The notes below the pieces were generated by a model. That model was not told where the DNA came from. It made no database searches and worked only from the letters and a program-made list of their open reading frames with translations. Below are positions 3,843-63,138 of a DNA stretch of 64,000 bases, piece by piece. The number at the start of each line of letters is the position of its first letter. The first letter of the stretch is position 1. The position numbers and the translations under genes are program-made. Location of the stretch: assembly GCA_044892525.1 (NCBI GenBank), contig CM097885.1, positions 5,706,001 through 5,770,000 on the forward strand, given 5' to 3'. This DNA is from Schmidtea polychroa. Taxonomy: Eukaryota.

Positions 3843-3896
3843 TATAATTAAAATTTGTTTATATATTTACAAAATAACTTTAAAATATCATTTTTA

Positions 3897-5929: not shown

Positions 5930-8369
5930 TAGAGTGTCTGTCTCGAGATTTCTCGCGAGAAATTTCTCGCTAGAATGGTATTTTTTTTAACTTCTCGTCT
6001 CGCCGAGACATTATGGTACTTCTCGTCGAGACAAGAATAAAAAATTTATAATTTTTTTAAAATTTAGTTGCTAGGTATTCTTTTTTTTGTGAGAGATAAT
6101 TTGCTATGAGAAAAATTAAAAAAAAAGGTTTTTTTTGAATCTAGTTGCATTGCTTTTTTTTTGTGATTATTGTGCTTCCATGGTTTTCTTTAACATGCAA
6201 AATGAATGTTTTGTTATGTTAGTTTGATTTCGTAAAGACACTGATTATTATATTTCAAAAATATTTCGAAAATAAAAGAAGGTATATTTTTCAAATAACA
6301 CTGAATTAATAAATTATTACAATTTCTTAACGAAATTTTTTACTTGTAGATTCAAAATTTAAAATTAGACTTCCCAAAAATGGAATCAGAATCATGGAAA
6401 CATTACAAAAAAAATGAAAAAGGCAAATATGCAGTATGCAATTACTGCACAAACAAAATATCCATTAAAGGATCATCAACAACTGGTTTAATACGTCATT
6501 TAAAGACGAAACATAGTATATCAATTAAGACCAAAAATACCTTACACCAAGAGAATGAAACCGAAGAAAATGTTCCTGCCAAAAAGCCAAAATTTCAATC
6601 ATCTATATTTAAATTTGTAAAACGAGCATCTTTAGCTCAAATTATTTCGCGATTAGTGGCAAAGGATGGAATATCTTTTCGTGCCATCAGTAATAGTAGC
6701 TTCATCCGACAATCAATTACTGAGCGGGGCTATACGCTACCAAAACATCAATCCGATATTCAAAAACTTGTCAGAGATTATTATTATGAAATAAAAAGTC
6801 ATATATGCGATGAAATCAATGTATTAAAAACCAGCAACACCAAATTCAGCATCACAACAGACGAATGGACTAGTCAAGAAACCGGCGGTATATGAACATT
6901 AATCTACACTACAGTGATGGTAAATTTTGTAATTTAGGACTTGCAAGAATAGATGGCGCTTGTCCAAGTGAAAAGGCTGTAGAAATGGTTAAAAATAGAT
7001 TGCGTGATTTGGACTAAGCTTTTCAGACATAGTTAGTTGCACAAGTGATGGTGCAGTTGTTATGGTAAAGTTTGGTAAATTGATTCCGTCATACCATCAA
7101 CTTTGCTACAACCATGGTGTTCACTTGGCTATTTTAGACGTTCTGTATAAGAAACCTGTCGAATATTTACCACAAATTAACTCTTATTTATCTTCCTCGG
7201 ACTCTGAACTTTCTGATGAAAGCACATATTTTGAAGATTACAACATACAAGTACCAAATATTAATAGTGACATTAATATTATTTTAAATCGTTTGAGGAA
7301 AATCGTGAAATATTTTAAACTATCACCAACAAAAAATTCTATTCTGCAAAATAAAGTAAAAGAAAAGCATGGGAAAGAACTTTCATTATTGTTGGATTGC
7401 CGAACTAGATGGAACACTATTGTAGTGATGATTGAGAGATATTTGAAAATTAAAGAAAGTGTTAATGATACGTTAAAATTTTTAAATATTGAAAATTATA
7501 TTATTGAAGAAAATGATATCACTATTTTGGAAAATTTAATGAATATTTTAAAGCCAGTTAAATTAGCTGTTGAAGCACTCGGTAAAGAAGATTCAAATTT
7601 ATTAACTAGCGAAGGTATTTTCCAGTTCCTATTCGAAACCATAAATGAAAATAGAAGTAGTCTGGCTAAAGAACTTCTTTCTGCATTAAAAAACAGATTT
7701 AACGCAAGAAGAAATAAGCAAATAGTATCAGTTATACAATTCTTACAGAATCCACAAATATTAAAATCAAATATTTCCTTTGAAGAGCTAAACTTGTGTT
7801 CTAAAACCGAAATTTTAAAAACAATAAAAGATATTATGAACAAGCACTTTCAAAAGGATGTTAACTCTGAAGAAGAACAAAATTGCAGCGAAATAACAAC
7901 AGTAGCAACAGGAATAAGTACAACACTTTTGGATAAATTACAACAAAACGTAGCATCTCGGTTCAAGACAATGCCGATAAATGAGGATATAAACAAATCC
8001 CTGACTAAAGAATTTAATTTATATGAGTTAAATGGGATTATTTCGGGCAATTTGAAGAATATTTTGGAAGCGTTAAAAACAATTAAGCCAACATCGACCG
8101 AGAGTGAGAGAGTTTCTTCAACTGCCGGAAATTTTGTTACAAAAAAACGTTCTGCATTGGGAGATGATTCCATAAATATGTTATGTTTTTTAAAATCATA
8201 TTTTAATAAAAATGAATAAATTTTATATTACTCTCTTTATAGGATTTGTTGTTATTTCTTTACATTTTCTTATGTATTAATATCTCGAGATTTCTCGAGA
8301 TCTCGTACAAATTTTGTCGAGAACTCTCGTCTCGACGAGAAATGAAACCGGCGAGAAACAGATGCTCTA
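5930..8369 (+). mobile_element. hAT DNA transposon, full length
   Basis: Imperfect TIR TAGAGTGTCTGT / ACAGATGCTCTA; exact 8-bp TSD GGTATAAG (5922-5929, 8370-8377); TCTCG-rich subterminal repeats. Confidence 0.95.
6380..8219 (+). pseudogene. hAT transposase with BED zinc finger, frameshifted
   Basis: Motifs W..Y...AVCNYC...STTGLIRHLKTKH (BED), TTDEWTS, CYNHGVHL, DCRTRWNT and PTSTESERVSS (hATC). The frame is broken at ~6880 and ~7010. Confidence 0.9.
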
Positions 8370-15974: not shown

Positions 15975-17695
15975 GTGCTCAACAAATATAGGTCAAAGCC
16001 TTCGGTCTACAATGTTCTCGAGCTCGAATACAGAGATGACGGGAAGTCTCTCAATGTATGTGGCATTACACCCATTACATGTAAACTGATAAACGAGATC
16101 GGAACACAATTGGTGGGTTACTGATGATCAAATATTTTGCTCCTTAGTGCTGTTTCCAGCGTAACCTAGAATACAATTTATAGCTGACCACTTGATACCC
16201 GTTGAGCAATCAACGTTGGTACTGTATCAAGGGTACCCCCTTCACCATATTTCTTTTATACTTGAATTCACAAAAACTTTCGGAAGAAGTATAGAGACCA
16301 GTATCAGTTGGTTTTCTATAAATCTCTGTCTCATAGTGTTTCTCTTTGTGGTGAATTATTAGCTCAATGCGCGTCTGTGTGCGCGTTGTATTGTGTGATG
16401 AATTTGTGTGCGCACACAGACGCGAGCAATGTAATTTTTTGGGTTGGGTTGTTGGTGTGTCGCGTCTGTGTGCGCTTTTCTTTTCTTTGTTTTTGGCTGT
16501 GTGCGCACACAGACGCGAGCAAGAGGTATTTTTAGTTTATTAGTTAGTTTTGATTTGTAATATTTTTAGATTTTAGATTTTTTATCGATTTTGTTGAGTG
16601 TTGTAAAGAGTTGGAATTTTATCGACGTTTTGAAGGAATGATGATTAATTTGAATACATGTGACTATTGCAATAAAGAGAGTTGGTAATGAAGAAATTTA
16701 ATGAAGAAATTTATGAATATGATGATGTTAATGGTGTTAATGGTATCGAATTTCGGTTTATGAATTTTGGTAAAGAGTTAGAAAAGATGGCGGCAATTAA
16801 TTATGAAAAGAATAAAATGATATCAAATTTATGTGGTGGATTGCTTTCCGTGGACATTCGATGCAATTATTGTGATGTAGTAGCTACACAAAGACAGGTT
16901 CCAGATAAAATGATTGAGAAGAGTTCAGCTACAAGATTGTTTAATATTACTGAAAGTACTGGAGGTGTTATGACTGGTATGATCCCTGATTATCGATCTC
17001 AAGTATGTCGTGCACAAATGGAAGCAGCTCGATTTAGATATAAACATGGATATGAAATGCCTTGCGACATAATCTGTCGTTCTATTGCGGATGTTAAGCA
17101 GCTTTCTACCCAATCAACTGAGATGCGACCATTAGGTTGTTCAATGATGGCTTTATCCTATAGTATTGAAATGGACAAATGGTTATTATTCAGAAATAAA
17201 ATGATTATGCTTTATTTTGAATTTAAAAATGAACACTTTGCGTTGTATTAACAGATTCAAGAAAGCAAGCGATGATTTTTTCTTCGTTTCACATGTGAAT
17301 ACAATGTTTTTATGTAGACTATTCATATAATGCAAAAACGGGTCAACATGCCTCTGATTTTCAAATATAAGAAAAATATCATCCACATACCGTTTATAAA
17401 CAGTGGGTTTCATACCTTGGAAAGATGCAATTTTCTTTTCTAAGCTTGTTAAAAAAATTGAAGCCATCGTTGGTGCTAAAGGAGAACCCATAGCAACTCC
17501 ATCTATTTGTTGATACCATTCATTATTGAAAAGAAAATTGATTTTTGAAGTTGCAAATACAAGAAGTTCACGAAATGCTGTTCTATCCAAAATATAATGT
17601 TCAGAAATATTTTCATTCCATAACAAGCAACATAATTCAATTGTTTCAGCCAATGGTACATTAGTAAACAGACTACAAACATCAAACGAAACCAT
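15975..17695 (-). mobile_element. Penelope-like retroelement fragment (RT + GIY-YIG), interrupted by an insert at 16359-17246
   Basis: RT motifs SFDVCSLFTNVP, GVAMGSPLAP and RYVDDIF; thumb YRKPTDTGLY (~16290-16325); GIY-YIG LVYQFTCNGCNATYI/ETSRHLCIRAREH (~16010-16100). Confidence 0.9.
16835..17165 (+). pseudogene. PSMA6: Proteasome subunit alpha type-6 (alpha1) internal fragment
   Basis: GLLSV…TQRQVPDKMI…LFNITE…VMTGMIPDYRSQV.RA.MEAA.FRYKHGYEMP.D…IADVKQ…EMRPLGCSM. The N- and C-termini are absent. Confidence 0.85.
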
Positions 17696-17789
17696 TTTGT
17701 TATAATGATCTTATAATTAAATAAATAATTGTATACAATTTTTCAACAATATTTAAAAAGACTTCAAATATTCTAAATTACTTTTCGAT

Positions 17790-21765: not shown

Positions 21766-23343
21766 TATATAGCAACAAAATAAGAGGTTTCTTAATAAAA
21801 AAACAGTAAATATATTTGCACTGATTCATTATAAAAAATCATCAAAAAAAATCAGAAAAAATTTCTACCTGTTTAGTAAAATTTACAAAGCAAATGGGAA
21901 ATCCGTCAAATTGACGCGTGCCGTAAACCTAGTGTTAACAATAATCTTTACAAAATTTTAAAATGTTATGAATTAATATTTTGATAACGAACTGTATTTT
22001 AATGCGCATTCTAATCAAGAATTTAAATAGAAAATTTATTTTTCACAATTTCAACACATTTTTTTACAATAGATTGCGCGCGCATACTCCTAGGGAGTCA
22101 TGCACGAACACAAAAAATATGATTATGAAAAAGCGAATAATGACAATTGTAATGTTTTGTTATATTTTATTTTTTTTGTTTATAACAAGGTTTTGTAACG
22201 TTTGGTTATTTTGTTCAGCGCGTGTCGCGTTTTGAAAAGATGAAAAACTATATAGCGATAGTTTACTATGGTACATTATCGCTATACGAAAATCGATCAC
22301 AAATAAAAAATTACAAATCAAACAATTCAAAAACATTAAAGTCTTAATTAGGCTGTCTAAAAGAAATTTATTAAATATATCCTTGTTGGCAAAACTTAAG
22401 AAAGACGATCTGAAAATAATAACCTATCTAAAAAGAAATTAAAGTTCGGAAATTTATTAAATTTATCAAATTTTTCAGAATATCAAAAGAAAATTCGAAG
22501 GCCGAGAAAGTTAACACTATTCAATCCTATTCACTAAAGTACTATTTATTGTAGTTGAATACAAGTTTTGTTGATCATTGTTTATTATTAGTTATTTTGA
22601 TTAGAGATTTGTAAACCCACGAATAAAAATACTTTTCGATAACATACACGCACCCCGATTGTCTCGCCAGATTTTTATTTATCGGATACTCTATCAGGTC
22701 CTACAATTCTTCAATTATACAATTATTAAAAAAGAAGAAGGAATTTTCAAAAATAGAATACCGCGTTATTCTCGGGGTGTGTTTATAGCAACAAAGATAT
22801 CCTTTATGTTGGGCTGAAACCGAGAACTGAGAGTTTGTTTTAATCGATCGAAAATACCTAACACAAAAACCTCAAAGTTGAAAAATTTATGACCAAGGTT
22901 TAATTTAAAATAAATGAAATAAATTACATCACACATTAAGAACCAATAAACCCCGTATAATAGAATAAGAGATAAATAAATTTAACAAAAAATTCAACAC
23001 TTAAAAATTTAAATAGAAAAATAATAAAATATAAAATAGAATTAGTTGAAAATTATTTAAACAATATAAAAATTAAATCGTCAAAAATAATAAAATTAGT
23101 TAGCATTATATAAATTGTAAAGTTTATAGAATTAAATGGTTATTTAACTTATTAAATTTAAAGAATAAAAATGTTTAAATTAATAAAAATTAATATAACT
23201 CAAATTATTTAAATTATAAAATTTATAAAATTAAAATTAATAAAAATTAAATAAGAAATTAATTAAATTTATTGAATTAAAACAAATAAACAATTGCACA
23301 CACTCATGCAGGTATGCAAGACTAATTAAAAATTTCTCGCACT

Positions 23344-23410
23344 CTGATTGGATAGAGTGGCAGCAAATGCATGAAAAATCAGTATAAATACTGATCACAA
23401 ATTCATTTAA
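23344..23410 (+). promoter_or_regulatory. LTR promoter: reverse CCAAT (CTGATTGG) + TATAAATA
   Basis: The same arrangement (CTGATTGG…TATATAAG) occurs at 42826-42862 in the related solo LTR. Confidence 0.6.
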
Positions 23411-23684
23411 GACCACTTTTTTTTCTAACATCAAAATTTAGTTGTAGCCAGTGAAGCTCTCAGTTTTCGATTTTATGCCCACGTGGATTTGGTAATTTAT
23501 TTTTTATTGTTGTAGTAATTTTATGAGATGATTAAATTTAATATGCAATAAAATTTTTAGTTAAATTTTCTTTTGTTATTTTCTTTTAATTGTTTAATTT
23601 CATTTAGTTGCAGGTATTAAATAATAATTTTTATTGTGTTCAATTTTTATACTAACTGATTACGAACGTTAGTACCGCTGAATT

Positions 23685-23808
23685 GAGATTCAGCATATCA
23701 TGGTTTGAGGTACCTTCGGGATGCTCAGACTGGTGGGTATGCTGGTTTTTCAATCGCGCAGCTGGATTGGGCCGGAATGTGGGGGCTTCCTCACGGGTCC
23801 TATCGCTG
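23685..23808 (+). ncRNA. Conserved structured RNA module A (two hairpins, cUUCGg loop); copies at 37608-37731 and 43297-43414
   Basis: Compensatory changes between the two LTR families. Confidence 0.65.
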
Positions 23809-24199
23809 GAAGTACTGTGGTCAAATGTAGGTTAGGACTGAGAATACAGGCAGATCCCTGCTCAAATTTCTTGAAGTATAACTTAAATATTATGGGAAGC
23901 GTGGATTAACTTGAAAATAAGGGCCAATCCCTGCTCAAATTTTTCAAAGGATAAGTTAGATATTGTAGGAAGTGTAGAACAATAATTATTAGCTGGAAAA
24001 TAAGGGCCGATCCCTGCTCAAATTTTTTTGCGAGATAGGTTAAATATTCATAAATATCAAGGAAAATACCTAGCAACATTTATTAATAGAAGAATAAGGG
24101 CGCATCCCTGCAAAAAATTTTGAAAAGAAATAATAGAAACCATCTAGGAATGAGGACCATAACCGAATGAAATAGAAAAGTAGAAATAGAAAGTGATCA

Positions 24200-24345
24200 A
24201 TGACGTAAGACCTTCTATCGGCCGTCTAGAACCCGAAGAGAAAATACAATGGGGAGTAGTTTTAGTAATGGAGCTCACCTGCTCATTGTTTTTTCACCTT
24301 TGTGTACAGTACCAACATGGTCGTCGCCATGGGTACACAAATGGT
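24200..24345 (+). ncRNA. Conserved structured RNA module B (three hairpins) near the LTR 3' end; copies at 38123-38268 and 45881-46020
   Basis: Stems covary between the two LTR families while internal loops are conserved. Confidence 0.65.
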
Positions 24346-24457
24346 TTAAATTGCAATAGTCATGGAGGTGCTTAGGAAAGAGTCGAACGATTATGATTAC
24401 CCCTAACGTATTTTAAATTGTAAAAAGGACACACCCCTAAGTAACCAACATGATTTT

Positions 24458-24475
24458 TGGGGGCTCAGCCGGGAT
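24458..24475 (+). promoter_or_regulatory. Primer-binding site, tRNA-Pro-like
   Basis: TGGGGGCTCAGCCGGGAT, 16/18 identical to the canonical tRNA-Pro PBS TGGGGGCTCGTCCGGGAT, 7 nt downstream of the LTR. Confidence 0.85.
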
Positions 24476-27400: not shown

Positions 27401-28732
27401 AATGGTTGAATGATGGGCCAGCAATTGGTTGAGGATTGGTTATGCAGGCTCTTGATAATATTTATGTCAATGAATTATTAAATGTTAATTGTTATTACGT
27501 TGATTAGTGAATGGATAAACCGAGGGAATGATAGCGGCTTTAGAAGGGGAACTTTTTGAGAATATACTGATAAATGAATATGTAATGGTATGAATGATTA
27601 TATGCAAATGATATATAAGAATGTATGGATTAGGGGGTTTAGGAAAAAGCAAGCTATATATGATTCTGGTATTGAGTTGTCGATACATACAGTGTATGAT
27701 AAGGACTATTTAAACCAATTATACTCTACAGGTAATACCTTCTACGCATACCAACCCAAGGGTAGAGTACCCAAGGATGTTAAATGCATCGGTAAAATGG
27801 AAAGACCAAACCATAAAAACGATTGAATAAACATTCAAATGAAAAATACGATAAAACTCGACAGATAACAAAGTACCAAACGATAAATAAAGCAAATGAT
27901 AACCATGTCTTAGCTTCTGCAAATGTGAATCTGAGACGAACAACATTATAGATAAAGAGATGAGTTTACCAGACGAAACCGAGCGAGTCAACAGATTCTA
28001 CTGAAAGTAAAAGAAAGTAAAGACAAGAAAAGACATCGAAACATCACGAATAGAAATGAACAAAATGAACAAAAGCGTTAAGTAAAAGAACAAAAACAAG
28101 AACTAAGCTTGCTGGTAACTCGAAAAATAAATCTGAACCAAAGACAATCGAGAATAACTGCGAAAAAATAAAATCACGGTACAAAAATAGAGCAAAAACA
28201 AATCGAAATAAAATCTTCGTGACAAAGGCACGAGAACTAAGTTAAAAGGCAGTGAAAAACTTTGCAAAATAGGCGAACATCACAGACACCCAGGGTACGT
28301 AGAAAATGAATTCTAAAACTTATGTAAAACGACTCGGGAGATTGACAAAGTATAGAGAGAAATCAATGAAAGTAAATATACAAGATACGAGAATAACATG
28401 ATAGGTATCAACGAAAATGATCCAGCGAAAGAAACCAGGAAGCCTAAGGTTAGCCAAAGTAATATGAATATACAAGACAGTTATACGTACGATGCTCATA
28501 TTAATAACCGGAAAGAAGTATGAAAAATTATCCAACGTCAACGATAGAGAATTGGAAACAATTAGAACCAGACGGGTGAAATATACAGTAAATGAAAGAG
28601 TACAGAACACTAAACTAAGAACAGTGGGGAGAGATCTAGCAAGTATCACGAATTACGAACCCACATACATAGAAAGGGTGATGACTATATATAGTGTGAA
28701 CAATGAATATATAAAGGTATATGATTATATAA

Positions 28733-28855
28733 ATATATATATATGTATATATATATATATATGTGTATATGTGTGTGTGTGTGTATATATGTATATATAT
28801 GTGTATATATATGTGTATATATGTATATATATGTGTATATATATATATATATATC
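28733..28855. repeat. (TA)/(TG) microsatellite
   Basis: Direct reading. Confidence 0.9.
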
Positions 28856-31472
28856 AGCGCGGTATAATTAGTATATAACTTCGGGAAGTAAAATGAAAAA
28901 AAATTCAGATAAAAGATTATGAATCAATATAGGTGAATTAATAGAATGAAACGGATCACAATGGAAATCAATCCCAATACCACCACAGGAGAAATATGGA
29001 AGCAGAAAAGCGTCATATTATCGTAAATAGCATTAGCTATACAGAAGTAAGGAATCTCATGGAGGAACAATCTAATCGAAAATTTGAACAATGAATTTGT
29101 TCGTGAGAGAATAATCAAGGCCAGAGAGGAAAAATTGAACTAAAGTGAAGAGAAATAGAACAACTCTAATGATAAAGTTAAATGCAAGAAATGAACTAAT
29201 AAGAATAGCTGGGGAAATCAAGGAGAGAAAGATATGATAAAAATGCAACGGATAATATCAGACGTTAAAAGGAAACGGGAAAAGGAAAATGCAGGGAGCT
29301 GAAGATGAAATACAAATAGCTGTAACAATTACAGCATTATATTCATGGAAAATAGTCATAAAATGAAGCATTCAATATACCGAGATGGAGGTGGAATGAG
29401 TAGAAGAACACTTGTACCGGTGGTTTCTGTTGGTAAAGGAGAAAACCAACGAACTATTAGCATGGTCATAGCATTGAAAAGAGACAGTAATGGCAGAACT
29501 GAGTGCCATAAAGAGGACTAATTGTATATAAATAATTGCATATATCGGTGTATACACCCCAACCAAAATGATATATAATAAAAGTAGAGGACCGATCACC
29601 ATAAACAAAGATAAAATAATGCGAAAAATCAAAAATATTAAAATCTACGCCTATTTAAGAGTAAGGAAAATCAATCAGAAAAAATGGACGTTTGGCAAAT
29701 ATTGTAGAGAGGACACGAGAACAAAATACTGAGAACCGAGAGAACACAAGATAATAAATAAATTAAATAATGAATGTCGGGGACGACATTTGGCGAAGAC
29801 GCGGAGGAAAAATGAGATCAAACTAAGATAACAACAAACGGGAGATCAAGATGAAAGTCAAAATGGACATGAGCAGTAATAGGAACAATCGGAAAAAAGT
29901 ATACAAAAACATGATTGACAGAAAATGAAGAGCACACATATAACAAAATAGAATATGAACAAATAAACACAATAAAAATGACAAGGAAAACACAGAACGA
30001 AATGAACAAACATGAAACAACAAATAACAAATTCACAGAAGGAAAGCAAGGCCAAAGACATTTGAACGAAAAGGCAAAACAGCGAGAAACGACAAATATA
30101 AAATGAAACATGATACAGAGAAACAGAACAAAAAATTGAAAGCTTAACATCACGACACGGCCAATTAAAATAACAATAGATGCTAACAAAAATGAGATCA
30201 ATTAGAAATATCGAACAAAAGTTTTAATTAGGAAAAACGAACATACTGCCAACTTTTACTATGGAGCAAAAAGTTACAATAATGAAAAACGAACGGACTG
30301 TCTACTTTTATTACGAACTATAAAGTTACAATTGTGGGAATTTCAATGATAAATTTGAATAAATTCAGAAATGATGGAAGCAATAATATCAACCACTCCA
30401 GGAACAGCTAGGGAGAAATGCGTACAGATGTAGATATCCAGATATAGATGGATATAGGTATATGAATATACGGTTATGGATAAGGGTATATGTATAAGTA
30501 TATGAGTGTATATGTAGACATAGATAAACAATTAAATGAGATAATGAAAATAAATGACCAATCAAAGTTACGCGCCAAAAGTAAAATAACAAATAGACGC
30601 GGAAATAAGTTAAAAACATAAAATATAGGGAGTGGAACAAAGAGGCCCATAAACAGAAAAACAACAAACAAATTTTGAAAACGTAAAATATACGAAATGA
30701 GAAACATTATGACGGGGAAATCAGTGAGGTAACATAAAAAATCAAAGATAAGGAAAATACACTAATACGGAAGCGTGATAAATTACAAAATTGAGCAGGG
30801 ATGGTTAATAAATAAACCATTGACGAATAGAAGGGTAACGAATAAAATGGATAAACAAATATTAACGAGTGATGCGAGAGGGATCTGCCTGAGGAAATAG
30901 TGAGCATATTAACGAGAAACAAGTCAACTAAAGCGGTAAGAGTAAAAGCGATAGCAATAAGACGTTAACTAGACAAGAGACGTGGACATATTTAGAATAA
31001 TGAAGAAGGACCAAGAGTAATTGAGATAAGTAGATTAAGAGCACGACGTAAAAATGAGAATAAAGTCCTACGAAAATTGAGAGCAAATGAATAAGGAAAA
31101 AATTTTTCTGTTAGGATTTAGGAAATCCACAACCTATGAGCTACGCTCAGCGTAGTACGGATAAGGCCCAGGAAAGTACCAACTGTCCTGACGAAAGATG
31201 TGGAACAGGGCCCATCGCATATACTGGAACATCTCTGCGTGTGACTGATCACCACACGATCGGAGATCGACCAGTGCGAGTGTTTCGCATCCGGAGTCAG
31301 GAGAGTGGGGAAAACCTGGAAGAGTAGTAAAAAGAAGCATGTAGGAGAAATAAAAAGAAGACCAAGTAAATGGGAAAAGAGAGAGCGAAGTAAAGAGAAA
31401 CAATTAGAGCTTAAAGACTAAATTGATAGATAACCGGTAGGCAGAATGATAGGGACAAGGACAGTCAAAGGA

Positions 31473-32155
31473 ATGCGAATAATAGATGCGAATAATAGAT
31501 GCGAATAATAGATGCGAATAATAGATGCGAATAATAGATGCGAATAATAGATGCGAATAATAGATGCGAATAATAGATGCGAATAATAGATGCGAATAAT
31601 AGATGCGAATAATAGATGCGAATAATAGATGCGAATAATAGATGCGAATAATAGATGCGAATAATAGATGCGAATAATAGATGCGAATAATAGATGCGAA
31701 TAATAGATGCGAATAATAGATGCGAATAATAGATGCGAATAATAGATGCGAATACTAGATGCGAATAATAGATGCGAATAATAGATGCGAATAATAGATG
31801 CGAATAATAGATGCGAATAATAGATGCGAATAATAGATGCGAATAATAGATGCGAATAATAGATGCGAATAATAGATGCGAATAATAGATGCGAATAATA
31901 GATGCGAATAATAGATGCGAATAATAGATGCGAATAATAGATGCGAATAATAGATGCGAATAATAGATGCGAATAATAGATGCGAATAATAGATGCGAAT
32001 AATAGATGCGAATAATAGATGCGAATAATAGATGCGAATAATAGATGCGAATAATAGATGCGAATACTAGATGCGAATAATAGATGCGAATAATAGATGC
32101 GAATAATAGATGCGAATAATAGATGCAAATAATAGATGCGAATAAGAGATACGAA
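31473..32155. repeat. 13-bp tandem array (ATGCGAATAATAG), ~52 copies
   Basis: Direct reading; almost invariant. Confidence 0.97.
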
Positions 32156-33138
32156 TATAAATGAGAATAATGGCTACGAATAGGAACGGAAATAACAGAC
32201 GTAAATATAGACGAGAATGTAAAAGGAAAGATAAACGAGAATATAGATGAGTACCTGGAAAGAAACATAGACGCGAATATAAACGAGAATAATAACTACG
32301 AATAATAAACGGAAATAACAGACGTAAATATAGATGAAAAGGTAAAAGGAAAGATAAACGAGAATATAGATGAGTACCTAGAAAGAAACATAGACGGGAC
32401 TATAAATGAGAATACAGCCGAAGTCATTGACAGATATATAACTGAAAATAAATAAGATCGTGAAGGAAAAAGACGAAAAACGAATTGAAAATAGACAACC
32501 GTGTAGGAGAATAGATGAGAATATAGAATGAATAATGGAGAACCGAGTCAAGAATAATAAATAAGTCTAAAAATTGGTAACGATAATGGAAAAAGAGAGA
32601 TATAAAGGACGACCAATAAGGTAAACGGAGGAAATTATAAAAATCGGAAACAAACATGAACAGAATAAAGACTACATCAATGAAGAAAACTAAGATAGAA
32701 ACAAGAATACAAGTAATGTAAGTCAATAGATAGAGATAAGCCAAGGAAAAAAGACAGTTAAAGTAGAGAAAACTATAGAAACGAAGAAAAGGAGTGTGAA
32801 TTAAATAAGAAGGATCGAAAAAATTACGTAGGAATTTGAGAACCAATGTGTAAACAAAACTAACGACGAAATGAATATTAAGATATGCCGGCACCCAAAG
32901 AAACCAAAGTAAAAATATTGCAATTGCACTATATAATATATATATTACAATTTATAAATATAATAAACGATAGGGAGAAGTGATATTTTTCTATTCAGGT
33001 AAATCAATCAATCAAGCCAACAGCCAAGTAACAGCAACCAACTAGAAGTTAGTGTCAAACAATTAAGCCAAGTTCGGAAATATTGAACCAATAACAAAGC
33101 ATACCAGATCAAAACAGTTAATAATAGAACCAAGTTTA

Positions 33139-35700
33139 TTGAAAGAAGAAGAATTAAAAGTTGCAAAGAAAGGAAGACGAACTATTAAACCCACGCAAGC
33201 ACAAGAAATCGAAAAGCAAAATCAAAAAGACATTTCAAAGACCCAAGGTCGATCCATAAAAGGAAGCAGTGAAAAGGATTTCGAAAACAATAGGCCAAGA
33301 AGCGTAATACGCGTATCAGAACCTCAGGAAGGAAAAACTCTATCTGAAAACAGAAATAATAAAAGTGCCATAAACCTAATAAAAGAAAAGACAAACGGAA
33401 AAAGAATACAATTAGAGATGGTAGATACAACAGCCCAAATGGAAGCGATCAACAAGAGACTCAGTGAAATGGAGATACCCAATTTCCAGGGAAAATATAA
33501 TGGCGAAAAATACGACGGAAAACCGAACAAACTATCAAACTTTATCCAACATTTTGAATCTTATTGCGATGCTCTAAAATGGACAAACGAAATGATAGTG
33601 AGAAGACTCCCACTATATCTAGCAGATGACGCGTTTAATTGGTACGTCGGAATAAAAGAGTGTACAACCCCACTAAAAACCTGGAAAGAAATTAAGGAAG
33701 CTCTGATAAAAACATTTGGAGAAGCAAAAGATGCACAATACAAATTTCTAGAATTCTTCAATCGAGGACAAGCAGTGAATGAATCAAATATACTTTACGC
33801 CAGCGCACTAAGACGTCTAGCCAAACCGCTGTTCAGTGAAAAGGATATGGAAACACAACTAGTAACCCAATTTGTAAAAGGATTGCAACGAGATGACATT
33901 AAAGGTGTAGTCGGATGCAAAATCTGCAAGACGCTGGACGAAGCAGTAGAGGCAGCGAATGTAAGCGAAATGTACACCAAAGTAACACAACCACCAAGTA
34001 GGAGGCACATCGCAGATAATCAACCCCAACACCACAGACAGTGGAGTCATAACAACAATAATCAAAGAAACGATAATGACAATGAAAGCAAGAGGTTGAA
34101 TAATAGAAACATCGAAAAATTTTGTGATGACTGCAAGAGACAAGGACACTGGCTCGAGGAATGTCATGGACAAAGAAGATGTTGGAATTGCGGTAAGAAA
34201 GGACATACCGCAGTGAGATGTGGAGTATCCAAAAAATGTTTCTCGTGCGGACAAGGAGACCATCTAGCAGTTGCATGTACGAATAAAAGAAACCAACAAC
34301 GGGGTGACAATAGGGATACGTCAACAAAGCAACTATCTGAAATGCAAAATCAAATAACAATTCTCACAGGACTGTGCAGTAACATGATCGATTATCAGTT
34401 TCAAGCGGAAGGAAAACAACAATCAAGAATAAATGTATTACAATGTGTGGGAGGCACATTACAAATTCAAAATATCCAAACAAAACAACAACGAGAATGG
34501 AATACCTTACAGATCGCGGAAGCACGAGAAGCGGAAGAAAGATGGAGTAAACGAAAAGAACCTCAGGCAAGAAGAGAAGAAAAATATTGGAGAACGAGAA
34601 AGGAAGAACTTTTAAAAATGGATATAATGAGACTAACCACCAACGACAACCAGAAGGAAAAGATAGAAAGAATGTGGGAAAGAGAACAAAAAAGAGTAAT
34701 ACAAATCAATATGATGAGAATGATAACGAGCAACGAAATAGATTTACAAAAAATTCCGGACTCAAGGATCGAAAGCGAAATAATTGAAAAACTGGAACAG
34801 GTAATATTAGACCATCAAAACATCAAACCATTTGAGGACAATCAGAGAGATTATACCGGCATCGATAGTCAGGTTGGAATTGCAGTAATCCCGGAAAAGC
34901 GCGAATCGGAGAATGGCGAAAATCACGAAAAACGAAATAATGAAAAAACGCAAGAAAAGTACCATGACATAAACACGTTAAAAACTGAAAGCGAGTGCGA
35001 ACCAGATATCGAATGGGACGCAAGTACAAACAATTACGGGAACGAATACCAACCACAAGGACATAATGAGCGCTATCGGTTCTTCGATAAGACGCATGGG
35101 AATTGTGAGAAAAATGAGCACGGAAAAAATAAATGTCGCCGCATAAAAAGGTGTTACGAATGTAAAAGAACTGGACATTTGGTCAATAACTGTCCGAATG
35201 GGACCAATCCAGTGAGAGATCAGTCACGAGAATACGCCACAGAACAAAACAATAAAGACTATGTCGAAAACAGAATTTGTCAGCCAGGGATACGAAAACA
35301 TCAATCTCCAATGTTAATAAAACAACAGTCGACAAATGTACAGAGACGGACAAATGACGTGAAGGAACAGGTGAAACCCAACGCATACGAGGAACTGAGG
35401 AGACAATGTGTGGAACAGTGCAGGTTAATAATGGAACTGGTTGTAAAAGAAACGAGACAGGATGAATTGATAATGATATGGAGAAAAGTCGCAGAAAACA
35501 AAACAAGAGAAAATGAGGTACTTAAGACAACGATACTCCGACTAAAAGAAGAAGCAAGGTCAGCCGAATTAAGAATCAATGAAATAACGGGTAATCGAAA
35601 AAAATGCAAAGATGGGGCAGAAGAGACACAAATGGTGACGGCCAAGGAAAAGAAGAAGGGTAGTCCAAAGGATGTGGCGGAAATTAAAGAGGAAGCGTAG
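33139..35700 (+). CDS. gag: Retrotransposon Gag with multiple CCHC zinc knuckles and C-terminal coiled-coil extension (first ATG 33418)
   Basis: Capsid-like region KYDG…FIQHFESYC…W…LPLYLADDAFNWY…TWKEIKEALIKTF…Q…ES…QFVKGL. Knuckles CDDCKRQGHWLEEC, CWNCGKKGHTAVRC, CFSCGQGDHLAVAC and CYECKRTGHLVNNC. Confidence 0.92.
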   Translation: MKEEELKVAKKGRRTIKPTQAQEIEKQNQKDISKTQGRSIKGSSEKDFENNRPRSVIRVSEPQEGKTLSENRNNKSAINLIKEKTNGKRIQLEMVDTTAQMEAINKRLSEMEIPNFQGKYNGEKYDGKPNKLSNFIQHFESYCDALKWTNEMIVRRLPLYLADDAFNWYVGIKECTTPLKTWKEIKEALIKTFGEAKDAQYKFLEFFNRGQAVNESNILYASALRRLAKPLFSEKDMETQLVTQFVKGLQRDDIKGVVGCKICKTLDEAVEAANVSEMYTKVTQPPSRRHIADNQPQHHRQWSHNNNNQRNDNDNESKRLNNRNIEKFCDDCKRQGHWLEECHGQRRCWNCGKKGHTAVRCGVSKKCFSCGQGDHLAVACTNKRNQQRGDNRDTSTKQLSEMQNQITILTGLCSNMIDYQFQAEGKQQSRINVLQCVGGTLQIQNIQTKQQREWNTLQIAEAREAEERWSKRKEPQARREEKYWRTRKEELLKMDIMRLTTNDNQKEKIERMWEREQKRVIQINMMRMITSNEIDLQKIPDSRIESEIIEKLEQVILDHQNIKPFEDNQRDYTGIDSQVGIAVIPEKRESENGENHEKRNNEKTQEKYHDINTLKTESECEPDIEWDASTNNYGNEYQPQGHNERYRFFDKTHGNCEKNEHGKNKCRRIKRCYECKRTGHLVNNCPNGTNPVRDQSREYATEQNNKDYVENRICQPGIRKHQSPMLIKQQSTNVQRRTNDVKEQVKPNAYEELRRQCVEQCRLIMELVVKETRQDELIMIWRKVAENKTRENEVLKTTILRLKEEARSAELRINEITGNRKKCKDGAEETQMVTAKEKKKGSPKDVAEIKEEA

Positions 35701-36729
35701 ATGAAAATAGTAAAAAGGAAGTGAACATATGTAAAAATTGATGTATAAATAGCAAATTAAATGTACTAGATGTATAGGTATAAATTGATGTATAATGTGG
35801 CAAAAGATCGATGTATAAATAGAAATGGATCAAGTAATCAGTTGAAAAAATACTAAATTTGAACCCTTACAATGGTAAAGGAGAACAGAGGCTCAAATGA
35901 GAAGAAAGAATATAAATCCAGAAGAAAGATAAAGATGCAAACCTAGAAAGAATGAGTTAAACGAATATTTAAAAATAATACCTAATTTGGAACCCCTAAA
36001 CAAAGAACGGTAAAAGATCCTGATAAATGAGACGAAAGTCACAGACCCAGTGACATTAGAAACTTAATCAAATCAAGCGAACTTAGACCAAAATCGAAAA
36101 TAATTTGAGTTACCCACTAGAGGAAGAAAATCCCTTAATAAGAACAATACCGTAAACAAAAACCACCGGGAAAAACCAAAAGAAAAATCTATGTGTCAAA
36201 TCACCCTTTTAAACAAAAATCCCGAAAACCCTGGAGCAAGGTCTGTCAACTACCATCAAATGATCCAGAAAACCGGAATCCCAGCCTAAAAATTCAAAGA
36301 GAATCAGGGAAAAACAGTCAAATCCTGATAGAGAGAATCCTATGATCTTCAGTAAATATTACGACCTAACTATGAAAATCAACAGCAGGAACCAAACAGG
36401 CCTACACAACCCAGACGAAAGATGGAAAACCGAGCCCAGAAACGAGAGAAACAACCAACTGATGAATTTATCCAGAAATAAAACTTTTGCATATGACTCG
36501 TACTTGAGTTTGGACACTGTATCAGTATGTATGTGTATTATGACCAGTCACTGTATGTGGCAACTGCTTGAATTTGAGCTTAGACCTTTTTCTGCTAATT
36601 GAATTCTAACATGTCTTAAACTATTATAGTATGTTTATAGGTTAATGGGAATGTAATAGACTATGACCTGGGAAATTCATATGTCTAACAGAATTGCGGG
36701 ACGCAATTTTAACGGGTCCCGGAGTGATT

Positions 36730-38373
36730 TGTTGGGCTGAAACCGAGAACTGAGAGTTTGTTTTAATCGATCGAAAATACCTAACACAAAAACCGCAAAG
36801 TTGAAAAATTTATGACCAAGGTTTAATTTAAAATAAATGAAATAAATTACATCACACATTAAGAACCAATAAACCCCGTATAATAGAATAAGAGATAAAT
36901 AAATTTAACAAAAAATTCAACACTTAAAAATTTAAATAGAAAAATAATAAAATATAAAATAGAATTAGTTGAAAATTATTTAAACAATATAAAAATTAAA
37001 TCGTCAAAAATAATAAAATTAGTTAGCATTATATAAATTGTAAAGTTTATAGAATTAAATGGTTATTTAACTTATTAAATTTAAAGAATAAAAATGTTTA
37101 AATTAATAAAAATTAATATAACTCAAATTATTTAAATTATAAAATTTATAAAATTAAAATTAATAAAAATTAAATAAGAAATTAATTAAATTTATTGAAT
37201 TAAAACAAATAAACAATTGCACACACTCATGCAGGTATGCAAGACTAATTAAAAATTTCTCGCACTCTGATTGGATAGAGTGGCAGCAAATGCATGAAAA
37301 ATCAGTATAAATACTGATCACAAATTCATTTAAGACCACTTTTTTTTCTAACATCAAAATTTAGTTGTAGCCAGTGAAGCTCTCAGTTTTCGATTTTATG
37401 CCCACGTGGATTTGGTAATTTATTTTTTATTGTTGTAGTAATTTTATGAGATGATTAAATTTAATATGCAATAAAATTTTTAGTTAAATTTTCTTTTGTT
37501 ATTTTCTTTTAATTGTTTAATTTCATTTAGTTGCAGGTATTAAATAATAATTTTTATTGTGTTCAATTTTTATACTAACTGATTACGAACGTTAGTACCG
37601 CTGAATTGAGATTCAGCATATCATGGTTTGAGGTACCTTCGGGATGCTCAGACTGGTGGGTATGCTGGTTTTTCAATCGCGCAGCTGGATTGGGCCGGAA
37701 TGTGGGGGCTTCCTCACGGGTCCTATCGCTGGAAGTACTGTGGTCAAATGTAGGTTAGGACTGAGAATACAGGCAGATCCCTGCTCAAATTTCTTGAAGT
37801 ATAACTTAAATATTATGGGAAGCGTGGATTAACTTGAAAATAAGGGCCAATCCCTGCTCAAATTTTTCAAAGGATAAGTTAGATATTGTAGGAAGTGTAG
37901 AACAATAATTATTAGCTGGAAAATAAGGGCCGATCCCTGCTCAAATTTTTTTGCGAGATAGGTTAAATATTCATAAATATCAAGGAAAATACCTAGCAAC
38001 ATTTATTAATAGAAGAATAAGGGCGCATCCCTGCAAAAAATTTTGAAAAGAAATAATAGAAACCATCTAGGAATGAGGACCATAACCGAATGAAATAGAA
38101 AAGTAGAAATAGAAAGTGATCAATGACGTAAGACCTTCTATCGGCCGTCTAGAACCCGAAGAGAAAATACAATGGGGAGTAGTTTTAGTAATGGAGCTCA
38201 CCTGCTCATTGTTTTTTCACCTTTGTGTACAGTACCAACATGGTCGTCGCCATGGGTACACAAATGGTTTAAATTGCAATAGTCATGGAGGTGCTTAGGA
38301 AAGAGTCGAACGATTATGATTACCCCTAACGTATTTTAAATTGTAAAAAGGACACACCCCTAAGTAACCAACA
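36730..38373 (+). repeat. 3' LTR
   Basis: Direct repeat of 22807-24450, followed by TSD TTTA. Confidence 0.95.
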
Positions 38374-40152
38374 TTTATAACTAATTTATAAATTTATAAT
38401 ATTTGTCGATGAATTTAGATATCAACAACTACTGATCTGGCACATGGCCTATTTTAATACAACAATAACGAATTATCAAATACAAATTCTTGTTACAGTT
38501 TTCTCCAGTCCCGGCCCTAGAGATTATGGAATTGTGATGCAAAGATTTTTTCGGCGACCTTAATGAACATTTTAATATTACAATAATAACTTGAGCGCAT
38601 ATTGCAACCCTCCTGGAGGAATAGCACATTGGAATACCACTTGGAATTTACAACTACTTGACTGCTGTTTCTGGTTTCAATGATCGGTGGATTTCATCTA
38701 GTTGCTTTCTTAGATTTGTCTGGGGTTTATTCGATAGCTTTAATTGGTTTTAAATCGGATTCTTTGATAACTTCGTAACTCACCTTGAATTTCGTTTTAA
38801 TTCTATTTCTTATTTTCTTTACAATTTCTGTTTCCTTTTCACTATACGAATTCTATCTCTTTTCCACTTTTCAAATTGTGTCCCTTAGAAGTTCTCTTCT
38901 CTAAAAAATCCTGTTTTCATTCAAGTTGCATTTCTTTTTATAGTCAATAATCTAATGGTCCTTAATGATATTGACTTTTGTTTAGTTTTACCCTTCCCGT
39001 ACATCCCTTTTGGCTATCTACAGTTCTTTTATTACCTCACAGCTTTCGAGATATGTAATATTTAGAGGACACAATCTCTAATAAAAATGACCTTGTAGTA
39101 TTTCATTATTTGATTGTTTGATTTTTTTCCAATTCTTTGCCATTTCTCTTTTGTTTTCTCAATGCTTCAACTCGCTTCTACTTTCCAGGGTTATGGAGTA
39201 ACACACCTTTTATTTTATACATTTTCCCCAATAATTTTATTCATTTTGACAATTAATTGTTTATTTTTTTTATTATTTTTATCCTCAACCAATTTTACCA
39301 ATAGTTACTTGCAAAACCGAATTTGAACAAGGCAATACACGCCTCACCTGAGTGAAAATGAATGTAAATAAAATTTACAACCGATATTGGCCCTATTGCT
39401 AATTTTTCTGTCCATACACTATGACCTTAATACTTGTTTTTTTGAACTTTAGGTTTTCAGGATCAAATATATTTTTAACTCTATTATTCATTTTCCTTCA
39501 ATAGTCTATCAATTTTTAAGGACTAACTCAACTTTTCAACAAAATCAATTAAAAATATTTATGAGCAATTTAACAATAAAATTAAAATTTTATCGGTTGT
39601 TTTAATATTGCTTGAAACAATAATTTATTTAAATTTGAATTTGTATGCTAATTTGCCATTTGAGTTTTAACCGTTTTTTCTATATACTATTCAAATCTTT
39701 CATAATTTTTAACACATTTTAATAAAGATTTCACACACAAATACATTTTGAATGTATTAATTAAAACTAATAAAAATTTATAAGATATTTTTGCAAACGA
39801 TGTCAAAGTTTGCACGATCACATGTGAGGCACGATGGCACTTGCCACGCTTTTGATTCAAACAACAAAGAGCACCATCGCGCTCTTCACTATAATGGTTA
39901 ATAAAAAAATTTCAAATTGGTTAGAGTTCAACTTAAATGTTCCATTTAACTTATAAACGAGGAGTACTGTAATTTTTAGGATATGTGACATGGGGGGTCC
40001 AGAATACAAAAAAGGTTGAAGCTGGTTTTCTGCTTTATCAAAATATTTAGATAATTTTTCCCACTTTTCAAAGTTTTAATAATAAAAAATTATAATAGTT
40101 TCATTTAATCAGCGACATTTTATTAAAATTATTTAAATAACGTGACTGCCAT

Positions 40153-41314
40153 TCAAAGGTTAGGGTAACTAGCCATGGTAGCTATTCCACATTGATTATC
40201 CTTATCTTTTGACATCTTTATATATCCTCTAAGTCCCCAGGAATCTCCCCAACTATTTTTCACTAGCCAATAATTTTCTCCTGAATCTTCATCGACCCCA
40301 TAACCAACTGCTAAGACGCCATGATCAAGCTGAGTTGATGAACAGGTTTCTTCATCATAAACTCCTCCCTATAAAAAAACAGAGGCGAAAAAAATAAATT
40401 GTTTAACTAACATTGTAAAACTGGAAACTAGGATTACTGGCATCAATTGCAACCGATATTGGCCCTACGGTTGCTAATTTTTCTGCCAAATCTTCTTCAC
40501 TTCCATGATCAATATCGGTAAAGTTTTTGCACCGTGTTATTACTTTGCGTTTGGAATATTGGCAGCTTCCATCCTGTAAATATATACAGGCGATATAGGC
40601 ATTGTATGGGATAACAAGTGATAATACCAACCATGGCTGTGTAAGGATAAACGCTTTCCTTTTCGATTCCATATTTCATAATATATTGAAAGGCTTGATC
40701 CATCAAACCACCATTGCAGCCTTCATTACCAAAACTTTGACTACAATCAACGAGTTGCTGTTCAGAAAAGCTGACTAATCTTTTTGTTTTCTTAAAATAT
40801 TGTCCTTCCATTGAGCCTGTCGTGGAAAATGCCCAACAAGATCCACATTGTTGCTTTAATTATAATTTGTTATTACTCACCTACTTTTAACCTTTTTTAC
40901 TTGATTTTTGACATTTGTGACGTAACCTTTTTTCACCCAGTTTACACTGTTGGGCAAATCCAATGACTTTCGTTTCTTGTCAGCAGATTTCCAGTCAACG
41001 GATTTCACGATTGGCCGATATTTTGTATAGATATCTAAAAATTCCTGATGAGTTAGGTCGGTAAACTGATTGACTCCCAATGTGTATTTATGTCTCCCAA
41101 GGTTGTATTCAATATTGTGTCTTTGAATGAATTGCAGATTTTCCTCCCAAATTTGCCTTCGAGCAAACTCATCCTCATCATTATAGGATTTGGCAAACTT
41201 AGTTTTGTATTCACTCCACAGCTCATCGAATCTTTGAAGGAAAAGCCCTGACCATGGTATGGATTCAACAAAACACGGGGTGATTATTAATATTATTCTC
41301 ACAAAGTCCATCAT
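40153..41314 (-). CDS. CTSL: Cathepsin L-like cysteine protease (exons 41314-40901, 40853-40632, 40573-40412, 40368-40153)
   Basis: Signal peptide; ERFNIN-type ([19 protein letters not shown]) and GVNQFTD propeptide motifs; [20 protein letters not shown] and YWLVKNSWG. Short canonical introns. Confidence 0.95.
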
Positions 41315-42501
41315 CGCTAATATTGTCAGAGACAACGCCTTTTATATTCATCGTTGTTCACACGAAAGTCATGTGCCTCGAATCCGTGAATTTATTCAAC
41401 GAGTCTAAGACTTTTCATAGAATAAATAATTAGTCAATTCCTAGAATTAATTTTGAAATGACGGATTATTATAATTAGGTTTAATTACATTTTTAAATGC
41501 GCAACCATTTATCGACTAAGACCCCTTTCACCCTTAAATATGAAAAGAATAAAATAAAAATAAAAATTTTAATAAATTACTACAATGGCCTAGGAGTCAG
41601 AATTTGTAATAGTCCTACCAGATTTTGTTATTGACAAAACAATATTGGGACAATGATAATACACTTTCGGCAAGAATTAGCTCTAAATCTGACTTCTCGT
41701 GTTCCGTAGAAAAATCAAAGAAGCCCAACAGAATAGAATTTATTAATTAGTTATCAAGAACATAAGGATTTCGCTCCATCAGTGACCATTTTGCAATTCT
41801 GACTTTCGACTATCGGTTTGAGTTTTTTCTCTTTGTCTTCCACTAAAAGTGACAAATTTTCTATATTTTTGTCTATTTGTATGGACATATTCGTCCTCCG
41901 GGACCAATAAGCAGTTATTGAAACCATCCTCCCTAAATGATTTATGAAATTAATCAACGTGTCAACTCTGAGATTTTCACAATGATTGATTGGTTTTTTA
42001 TTAAAAAATTAGTTTTTTTTGTTCTACCCTCCATAGGGACTTCTTGTACTTTTAAATTTGTCTTAAATATTTTATTTGCCATCAGTTATCACGTTTTCTG
42101 TCAGAAAAATATTAATATGCAGTTTCTTGAATATTTCCCTAAATTTTTATTAGTTTTGTCTCTTCAATTTTCCATTTATTTTGTGCATTTTTGTGTAACC
42201 CCAATAGTGTTACAAGTTTTAAAAACAATTTTTATTCATCTAGATTTTAAAACCAATACAGTGTAACTTCTATATAGGGGGCACGAATTTTCATACATGC
42301 CCTAATTATAGAGTGTGCCCCACTCATGGAATTCTTTTTAAAAACATATCTAATGATATCAAAAATTAAATGTGCCAATAATTAATACAAGACAATATTT
42401 AAACTAAGATTTTTATTAATATTATTTTAATGCAGATAAACAAATGATTAACTGAATTAAAATAAATAATTATTATTAATTTTAGAGAAAATTGAATAAA
42501 T

Positions 42502-45500: not shown

Positions 45501-46149
45501 ATCTCCGCCGCTGGTGTGACTTGGGAGGAAAACGCCTCCGAGTTTTTCGACTTGGATGAATTGTTAGCAGACACCGGATGGGAGAAATGAAAACCTCCTC
45601 GTAGAGCAATCGAGCGGTATAGTAATGGTCAAACTGAACTATCATGGTCTAACTCTTTCCTTACACCGTTTGTCTATGAAATTGTATATGTTATATGTCA
45701 CTCATCCGTATATTGTATTTCGATGACAAAATAAAACAGTTTTTGGTTATCAAGCTCTTCGTTTTTGTAGTAGTTCGGAGTAGCTTTTATAGATCAAGTA
45801 GAGATTTTGCAGTTCGAAGAGTAATAGTCAATTTGCATCTAATTCGGGGTCGAAGGAAAGTGAGGTTTGATGATGCGATTATGACGTAAGTCCTTCTATC
45901 GGCAGTCAGGGAAAGGAAGTCGAGGCCTCAGTAAGGAGTAGTCCTAAGGCAGGGGCGCACCTGCTTACTGGAGTCTCGCCGCATAGCACATTTCCAACGT
46001 GAAGCAATTCACGGGTGCTACGTTGGAGTGTAGGTTGTGCAGGGTTCTGCTCAGGGTTGACATGGGTATAATTAATGTAAGTGAAATGGACACCCATCTC
46101 CTTTACAAGCGCGTGAGTGGGTTGAAGTCAACCGAGCACTACCCCAGCA
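42502..46149 (+). mobile_element. Large (3.65-kb) solo LTR related to the 22807-38373 element
   Basis: Starts TGTTGGGCTGA (same as the 1644-bp LTR) and ends TACCCCAGCA; TSD AAAT; shares promoter layout and RNA modules A and B. Confidence 0.85.
44851..45590 (+). pseudogene. LTR-embedded accessory ORF (CxxC + coiled coil, basic patch, acidic tail), with a stop at 45367 and a frameshift at ~45422
   Basis: A 172-aa ORF continues after TGA as QLSRAERKKRQRDR and, in a shifted frame, as …EFFDLDELLADTGWEK*. Confidence 0.5.

Positions 46150-52774: not shown

Positions 52775-63138
<10,364 letters not shown>

Follow-up and report, generated by a model that had tools for sequence, protein, structure and literature searches.

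Two otherwise dissimilar kinds of giant LTR in the window (the whole 64,000-nucleotide stretch of Schmidtea polychroa DNA analysed here) share a module that is a real, selected RNA structure and represents a family outside Rfam 15. Judged by the coding content between its copies, its hosts are the LTRs of Burro-type giant Ty3/gypsy elements, and it is probably part of a retroviral-type regulation. The reading that we prefer, with slightly less than even confidence, is that the module is the response element for an LTR-encoded protein and switches expression from a short spliced mRNA to the full-length unspliced RNA. An initial annotation of this DNA had proposed a functional cis-acting RNA that it could not assign to a known family; covariation, identity across families and the absence of an Rfam match all support that proposal, to which we add an arginine-rich protein encoded in the LTR, splice-like signals on either side of the module, and the connection with Burro. 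The coordinates of all features are collected in Table 1.

Table 1. Features of the two LTR families in the window (positions counted from the first base of the window)
Feature	Position	Strand	Remarks
5' LTR, non-autonomous family A	22807-24450	+	1644 bp
TATA box, LTR A	23383-23388	+	reverse CCAAT box ~35 nt upstream
Splice-donor-like site, LTR A	23492-23497	+	candidate; upstream of module; also 37415-37420
RNA module, 5' LTR family A	23676-23808	+	hairpin 1 23676-23758, hairpin 2 23759-23808
Upper hairpin 1, conserved	23699-23736	+	1x3 internal loop, purine-rich inner loop, cUUCGg cap; candidate protein site
Variant hexamer, LTR A	24049-24054	+	position equivalent to AATAAA of LTR B; weak candidate poly(A) signal
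Module B, second conserved block	24200-24226	+	near LTR end; counterpart 45881-45907
Primer binding site	24458-24475	+	common to family A and autonomous families
Gag-like ORF, family A	33067-35700	+	CCHC knuckle
3' LTR, family A	36730-38373	+	1644 bp
RNA module, 3' LTR family A	37599-37731	+	identical to 5' LTR copy
Solo LTR B, long autonomous-type family	42502-46149	+	3648 bp
TATA box, LTR B	42855-42861	+	
Splice-donor-like site, LTR B	43060-43065	+	candidate; upstream of module
RNA module, solo LTR B	43286-43414	+	hairpin 1 43286-43365, hairpin 2 43366-43414
LTR gene	44851-45590	+	helical domain, Cys pairs, arginine-rich motif, acidic tail; broken copy
Candidate poly(A) signal AATAAA, LTR B	45730-45735	+	position conserved in long LTRs

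In 35 aligned copies, the module folds into two hairpins, about 80 and 50 nt long, that abut directly without a linker. The stems, the cUUCGg cap, the GCUU loop and the exchange of GAU/AUC for GAC/GUC that the initial annotation had read from the letters are all present in sequence and fold. The location it gave for the module also holds, but its 5' limit has to be moved, since the outer stem adds 9-11 nt to hairpin 1. A covariance-model search of the window found exactly three copies, all of them known. The z-score of the fold on the + strand was -3.5 in LTR A and -3.8 in LTR B, against -1.6 and -3.0 on the - strand; taken alone and compared with shuffles, hairpin 1 is strong (z -4.9 and -4.6) and hairpin 2 weak (z -1.3 and -1.8). 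The computed energy is -57 kcal/mol as RNA, while as DNA it is -20 to -26 on the + strand and -14 to -20 on the - strand. In the lower stem of hairpin 1 the sequence is free to vary and the pairing is kept. The positions that are both unpaired and conserved are the 1x3 loop (A opposite GUG), the purine-rich loop below the cUUCGg cap, the 5x1 loop and the GCUU loop. As a separate and unexplained observation, the hexamer at the hairpin-2 loop (23785-23790) is the exact reverse, not the complement, of the hexamer at the hairpin-1 loop (23714-23719).

The aligned copies come from a single genome and were chosen for diversity among pattern and blast matches; because the patterns used to pick them fix part of the module, its apparent invariance is inflated. 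As a check on this bias, copies picked with the pattern for one hairpin, which placed no constraint on the other, still had that other hairpin; this was so for both patterns. Over 47 pairs, 97.0% of the paired cells pair and 16 pairs show two-sided changes, a result reached by none of 500 shuffles; control alignments slid out of register gave 36-51% paired. Because related copies share changes, we repeated the count on 15 disjoint nearest-neighbour pairs, which use 30 of the 35 rows (five were dropped for gap shifts). Among these independent pairs, 17 of 20 double changes were compensatory, against a null mean of 1.45 and a maximum of 9 (of 5000). Pairing was preserved by 24 of 52 single changes, as expected where dead copies are included. 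The covariation first noticed between two families thus holds in a deeper alignment, also when only independent pairs are counted. Cells with G-U number 243 and those with A-C only 18, which identifies the folded strand as the sense RNA.

The module is under selection beyond shared descent. Identity between families is about 0.4 around the module, 0.76-0.94 over it, and then drops again, and across families the module is 81-88% identical where the adjoining LTR gene is saturated at synonymous sites. For example, the module of LTR L063 has an identity of 0.88 to those of two other LTRs, and pS of their LTR gene is 0.83-0.84. Comparison with Rfam, which the initial annotation had suggested as a check on novelty, matched no known family: the window gave nothing at the gathering score, and seven short loci searched at E up to 10 gave only two chance matches with E of about 8. 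On inspection we also rejected an H/ACA snoRNA (no hinge and no ACA box) and a pre-miRNA (the mature strand would fall in the variable part).

A distant LTR family, whose protein is 39% identical, has a long hairpin at the place where the other long LTRs have theirs, 3.0 kb before the primer site. Its z-score is -5.7 on both strands. On our covariance model this family reaches just 5.6 bits (E 2.2), and no hairpin 2 can be recognised in it. The hairpin bears GGUG on both strands and a GNRA loop in place of UUCG. The pattern for this family gave 139 matches; among the 100 listed, read by eye, the loop is GNRA in 95, GAAAA in 4 and neither in 1, and three bridge the two types, with GGUG followed by the inner stem of the main families. 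Homology of this hairpin to hairpin 1 is only moderately supported, because the pattern itself fixed GGUG. UUCG and GNRA are both stable RNA tetraloops, and their exchange points to a structural cap, with recognition falling to the internal loop.

When LTR A was aligned to LTR B using blastn, the best block was the island itself (23671-23808 against 43281-43414, 79% over 138 nt, E 2.8e-25), confirming that it is common to two LTRs that are otherwise hard to align. Behind it came a block of 27 nt close to the end of the LTR (E 3e-6), followed by AT-rich matches with E of 1e-5 or weaker; the first 11 bases of the two LTRs are also identical. The family A element is young, with LTRs 99.9% identical to each other and a 4-bp target duplication; solo LTR B is likewise flanked by a 4-bp target duplication. 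Between the family A LTRs we found a gag-like ORF only and no pol. With its LTR start, primer site and both modules as in the autonomous families, family A is a non-autonomous derivative. The primer binding site, which we take to be tRNA-Pro-like, has a pattern with 697 matches in the genome.

Several further features of family A were noted. The region of module B (24200-24300 and 45881-45990; also loci L098-L115) is 66-74% identical across families compared with about 35% around it; it has a small stem-loop and a CRE-like TGACGTAA start, would lie in U5, and is retained in family A. Three to four repeats of about 70 nt (23839-24110) fill the family A LTR where the long LTRs have the gene. The internal region has a strong purine skew and contains an AT/GT microsatellite (28707-28854) and a 13-bp tandem array of 55 copies (31473-32182), upstream of which lies a GC-richer island with hairpin-like stretches (31100-31350).

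In the 781-Mb genome, three module patterns gave 847, 1355 and 1479 matches and their reversed controls gave 0, so that the copy number is about 1,400-1,500 pattern matches. The first 40 scored matches to the family A module were 100% identical. A hairpin-2 pattern had no match in metagenome and viral contigs. Genomic matches are often paired, about 13 kb or 26 kb apart. Within one 26-kb pair (L096) there are ankyrin, RING and MATH/TRAF ORFs, and within another such pair of module-bearing LTRs (L097) there is one open frame of 2333 aa with a fusion glycoprotein (E 3e-70), PR, RT, RNase H and IN, together with a weak Bcl-2-like match (E 0.019, below the cut-off). This is the architecture given for the giant gypsy-like planarian elements Burro/GYPSM1 in the accessible portion of their description (PMC6431247): a giant gag-pol polyprotein in which Bcl-2-like and Env-like domains precede PR, RT, RNase H and IN, with ankyrin, MATH/TRAF and RING accessory domains. 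LTR pairs about 26 kb apart are a further point in common. Burro RNA is described as rising in animals depleted of PIWI (PMC8532177). The same portion of that description makes no mention of an RNA structure or a gene in the LTR (PMC6431247). The Gag of the window has no match in L097, a stretch that does not reach gag. As a possible source of pol we also considered three regions between widely spaced LTRs of the family A type and rejected them, one having no long ORF (L057) and two having Polinton genes (L059 and L061). The latter include Polinton PolB, double jelly roll capsid, A32 ATPase and integrase genes and are probably nested insertions.

The long LTRs contain an ORF of about 250 aa between the module and an AATAAA (for example L063:2785-3537 and L116-L124). 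The encoded protein is under purifying selection with a dN/dS of about 0.1 (0.09-0.13 in the 4 of 15 pairs that are unsaturated at synonymous sites). The ORF was free of stops in 136 of the 150 best-scoring of 7032 candidates, a set biased to intact copies; the copy in the window is broken by a stop near 45367 and a later frame break, and has a degenerate acceptor near 44842. All seven LTR proteins that we compared have 10 R+K within 17 residues; the protein also has Cys pairs and an acidic aromatic tail. A structure model of low overall confidence (pTM 0.33) has long, confident helices at residues 14-97. Using a regular expression for the consensus, we found no canonical leucine-rich export signal after the basic motif in six of the seven; the consensus is present in the seventh (L120) and in some distant homologues, several of which continue into unrelated exons. 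The acidic tail looks more like an activation domain than an export signal, and the basic motif may do no more than serve as a nuclear localisation signal. Ahead of the tail, an I/V-D-L-T motif resembles SUMO-interacting motifs.

No homology of the LTR protein to Rev, Rex, Rec or Tat was found by Pfam, sequence or fold, and Rfam was also negative. Pfam gave weak coiled-coil matches only, a word-seeded sequence search gave 0, an Atlas search gave at best 0.86 with low recognition, and a viral fold search, with E up to 0.001, gave 0. Searched with a profile, 1.84 billion representatives yielded 14 distant proteins, all through residues 22-122 (the N-domain); the 10 that were looked up are all unnamed. 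Unrelated host-type domains are also present in 11 of the 14, and we read these as gene models that spliced the LTR exon in. An arginine-rich stretch, often N-R-R-R-R-E-R-R, lies downstream and outside the match in 10 of the 14 (two of the 14 had no anchor in the basic-motif scan and were read by eye), and the basic stretch of one homologue has a weak Pfam REV match (E 0.0013, below the cut-off). In family A, tblastn found no trace of the LTR gene, though the module is kept.

Signals for transcription and processing surround the module. TATA and reverse CCAAT boxes lie 300-500 nt upstream of it, and the spacing from TATA box to island, as measured, is about 295 nt in LTR A and 430 nt in LTR B, essentially as first annotated. 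In 16 of 18 representatives, a donor-like site followed by an AU-rich stretch precedes the module's CAUG by 190-285 nt; in the other two the site lies farther up. On the acceptor side, a pyrimidine tract and YAG stand 0-9 nt before the ATG of the LTR gene in nine of ten copies, the tenth being the broken copy in the window. Among 22 LTR ends that are otherwise 30-40% identical, 13 have AATAAA 406-442 nt before the end. After removal of nine ends (near-duplicates and those of the family A type), it is found 380-470 nt before the end in 9 of 13, compared with no more than 1 of 13 in each of the other 45-nt bins, the bins having been set after seeing the data. Families without AATAAA at the conserved site mostly have a variant hexamer instead. 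Because of this conserved AATAAA near the LTR end, we place the module in a long R region. It would thus fall inside the transcript, in a putative intron, with the use of donor, acceptor and poly(A) signals predicted from their positions and conservation. Two other candidate signals were rejected: an AG just before the module as a 3' splice site (this AG usually follows a G and is absent in some families) and an AATAAA upstream of the module as a poly(A) signal (it occurs anywhere between -43 and -256, and one family lacks it).

We compared sequence contigs of runs X1, X6 and X7 (RNA by guess) and X2 over 32450-46200. There was no donor-acceptor joint among the 15 joints listed of 130. In X1, one contig reads unspliced through the LTR B donor into the module; a single contig that ends exactly at the family A donor (37414) was not counted as evidence. 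Module variants are present in X1 and X6, which may include DNA, and the module is uncovered in X7, where spliced host cathepsin mRNA is seen. Patterns for the family A junction and for an L063-type junction found no intron-less copies, a result of little weight. In some families only (L040, L041, L044, L050 and L063), a direct duplication of about 30 nt just after the inferred start, some 430-470 nt upstream of the module, flanks a tiny intron-like GTAAG...AG segment.

Under the reading that we prefer, early transcripts would start at the LTR promoter. Splicing would join the donor that precedes the module to the acceptor at the ATG of the LTR gene, and polyadenylation would take place about 410 nt short of the LTR end. 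The product would be a short mRNA for the arginine-rich protein of about 250 aa, with the module removed as an intron. Later, the protein would oligomerise through its helical N-domain, bind the conserved G-rich internal loop of hairpin 1 with its arginine-rich helix, and license the intron-retaining genomic RNA of 26-30 kb, either by nuclear export, as Rev and Rex do, or by promoting elongation and suppressing early splicing and 3' processing in the manner of Tat. Both the binding and the step controlled are predictions from sequence. The non-autonomous family A would keep the RNA and borrow the protein in trans, and hairpin 2 may serve a different partner, for example Gag. In favour of a response element we count the fold and the selection on it, the selected arginine-rich gene, the bracketing signals, and the module kept without the gene in family A. 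Against it are the missing splice joint in the contigs, the absence of an export signal in six of seven proteins, and the lack of homology to Rev, Rex or Tat. In addition, the same module and poly(A) signal are present in both LTRs, so the model leaves termination in the 3' LTR unexplained. A broader claim is that the Burro LTR holds a complete Rev/RRE-like or Tat/TAR-like switch, made up of a promoter, a response element within an intron, an exon for the regulator and a poly(A) site, and that this switch arose in a Ty3/gypsy lineage independently of vertebrate retroviruses; this we regard as possible but rather doubtful. On that view any intact solo LTR would work as a regulator gene complete in itself, and the non-autonomous families, having kept no more than the RNA target, would be parasites of the system.

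The layout resembles that of complex retroviruses in that the regulator would come from spliced RNA and its target would be present only in unspliced RNA. In Tat, Cys pairs, a basic motif and an acidic region occur together, and TAR starts at +1. The module shares with HIV-1 Tat/TAR a bulged hairpin in R (given its inferred placement there) and these features of the protein; in contrast to TAR, it has two hairpins and lies about 260-400 nt past the inferred start, downstream of the donor. HTLV-1 Rex/RxRE, HIV-1 Rev/RRE, HERV-K Rec and MMTV Rem likewise combine a structured RNA with an arginine-rich regulator, there made from spliced mRNA. Burro differs from these in being Ty3/gypsy rather than Retroviridae, in carrying gene and RNA inside the LTR and hence duplicated at both ends, in having no sequence homology and no canonical export signal in six of seven proteins, and in that binding between its protein and its RNA is a prediction. 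Rev-like proteins are described, in the parts of the sources available, as products of spliced mRNA with an arginine-rich motif and mostly a coiled coil (PMC5568270, PMC9523361), and their RNA targets in beta- and deltaretroviruses as lying in or near the LTR (PMC5568270, PMC10746203, PMC9523361). The nearest parallel by lineage is CERV of the gypsy-type element Cer1, a protein from a spliced mRNA with essential Cys and Arg that is required for export of the unspliced genomic RNA; the available part of its description presents it as large, with three predicted domains, and contains no defined RNA target that we could find (PMC10309623). We detected no homology between CERV, compared by description only, and the Burro LTR protein.

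The most substantial alternative, which we nonetheless consider unlikely, is a Psi-like packaging signal: zinc knuckles of Gag would bind the exposed guanosines of the internal loops, the position 3' of the donor would restrict packaging to unspliced RNA, and the LTR protein would be an unrelated transactivator. This explanation predicts the intron position and the retention in non-autonomous elements as well as a response element does, and it fits the module being kept in the gag-only family A, the G-rich asymmetric loops (1x3 in hairpin 1 and 5x1 in hairpin 2), the unpaired purines in a 5' leader and, weakly, the lack of intron-less copies for two junction patterns, as if unspliced RNA were selected. 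Retroviral packaging signals are described as structured 5' elements with unpaired purines, HIV-1 Gag preferring a G//AGG internal loop, in the text available from one source (PMC12789967). Like Psi of HIV-1 (SL1-SL3) and MLV (SL-C/SL-D), the module has adjacent hairpins with purine-rich internal loops downstream of a donor; unlike Psi, it is inside the LTR, upstream of the primer site, and has no palindromic loop. In the 35 copies no palindrome is conserved in either loop (the loops being UUCG and GCUU, with common palindromes only in stems), which argues against a kissing-loop dimer site; dimer folding, just 5-8 kcal/mol beyond two monomers, was uninformative. The initial annotation had listed TAR-like, packaging, export and ribozyme roles side by side; the ribozyme is now the least supported of these, and an export or TAR-like role and packaging are the more plausible ones.

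It is improbable that the module acts through a host factor independently of the LTR protein, by NXF1 CTE-like export, stability, or control of splicing or polyadenylation. CTEs work without a viral adaptor (PMC10746203, in its available part), the conserved internal loops sit on a long stem, and a donor upstream of a poly(A) signal in the LTR is the layout of foamy viruses, in which U1 snRNP and RNA structure are described as setting poly(A) choice (PMC3694450, also in part); but a host factor would leave the selected arginine-rich gene unexplained, and no Rfam family matches. A role in reverse transcription, by strand transfer through R, or as a DNA-level site is very improbable. The inferred placement in R and a CAGCTG palindrome in 24 of the 35 copies would suit it, while pairing kept where sequence is not is needless for duplex DNA, and the excess of G-U over A-C cells, an RNA fold far below the DNA energies, and a cap that is UUCG in one group and GNRA in another all speak against a DNA site. 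A new self-cleaving ribozyme has the slightest chance of all. The invariant internal-loop nucleotides include a C-A step, and two abutting helices could dock. Neither at the gathering score nor at E up to 10 did any Rfam ribozyme match, none of the ribozyme core motifs tried is present on either strand, and a cut 260-400 nt into the RNA would separate the cap from the genomic RNA. The C-A step lies on the shorter side of a loop set as 1x3 by flanking covarying pairs, whereas twister-sister-like (lantern) ribozymes, in the accessible part of their description, have a 5x6 internal loop with C-A in the longer strand (PMC11620745).

Little is known about how LTR retrotransposons license their intron-containing genomic RNA for export. 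With a defined covarying RNA of 130 nt and a candidate arginine-rich partner adjacent to it, the question becomes testable with a peptide and an RNA. If protein and RNA pair, complex-retrovirus regulation would have evolved convergently outside Retroviridae, and the numerous solo LTRs of planarian genomes would be potential regulator genes. If they do not pair, the module would still be an RNA family absent from Rfam 15 and a likely signal for packaging or export in LTR elements that are among the largest known. Our full-text literature searches gave no paper on a Rev-like retrotransposon system in planarians and, in the passages that they brought up, no RNA structure or gene in the Burro LTR, the original 2018 Burro paper and Repbase lying outside the reach of those searches.

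Other features of the window lie apart from the module. A host cathepsin gene (40148-41341, - strand) is located between the two elements and is spliced in run X7. A 28-bp satellite occupies 53873-58598 with about 169 copies. In addition to pieces of hAT transposase (zf-BED and dimerisation domain), four regions (6350-8219, 49304-51362, 16676-17710 and 3852-5420) hold another transposase-like pair, fragments of a proteasome subunit and of an RT, and an ORF of 522 aa that has no clear Pfam match and that we take to resemble CWC22.
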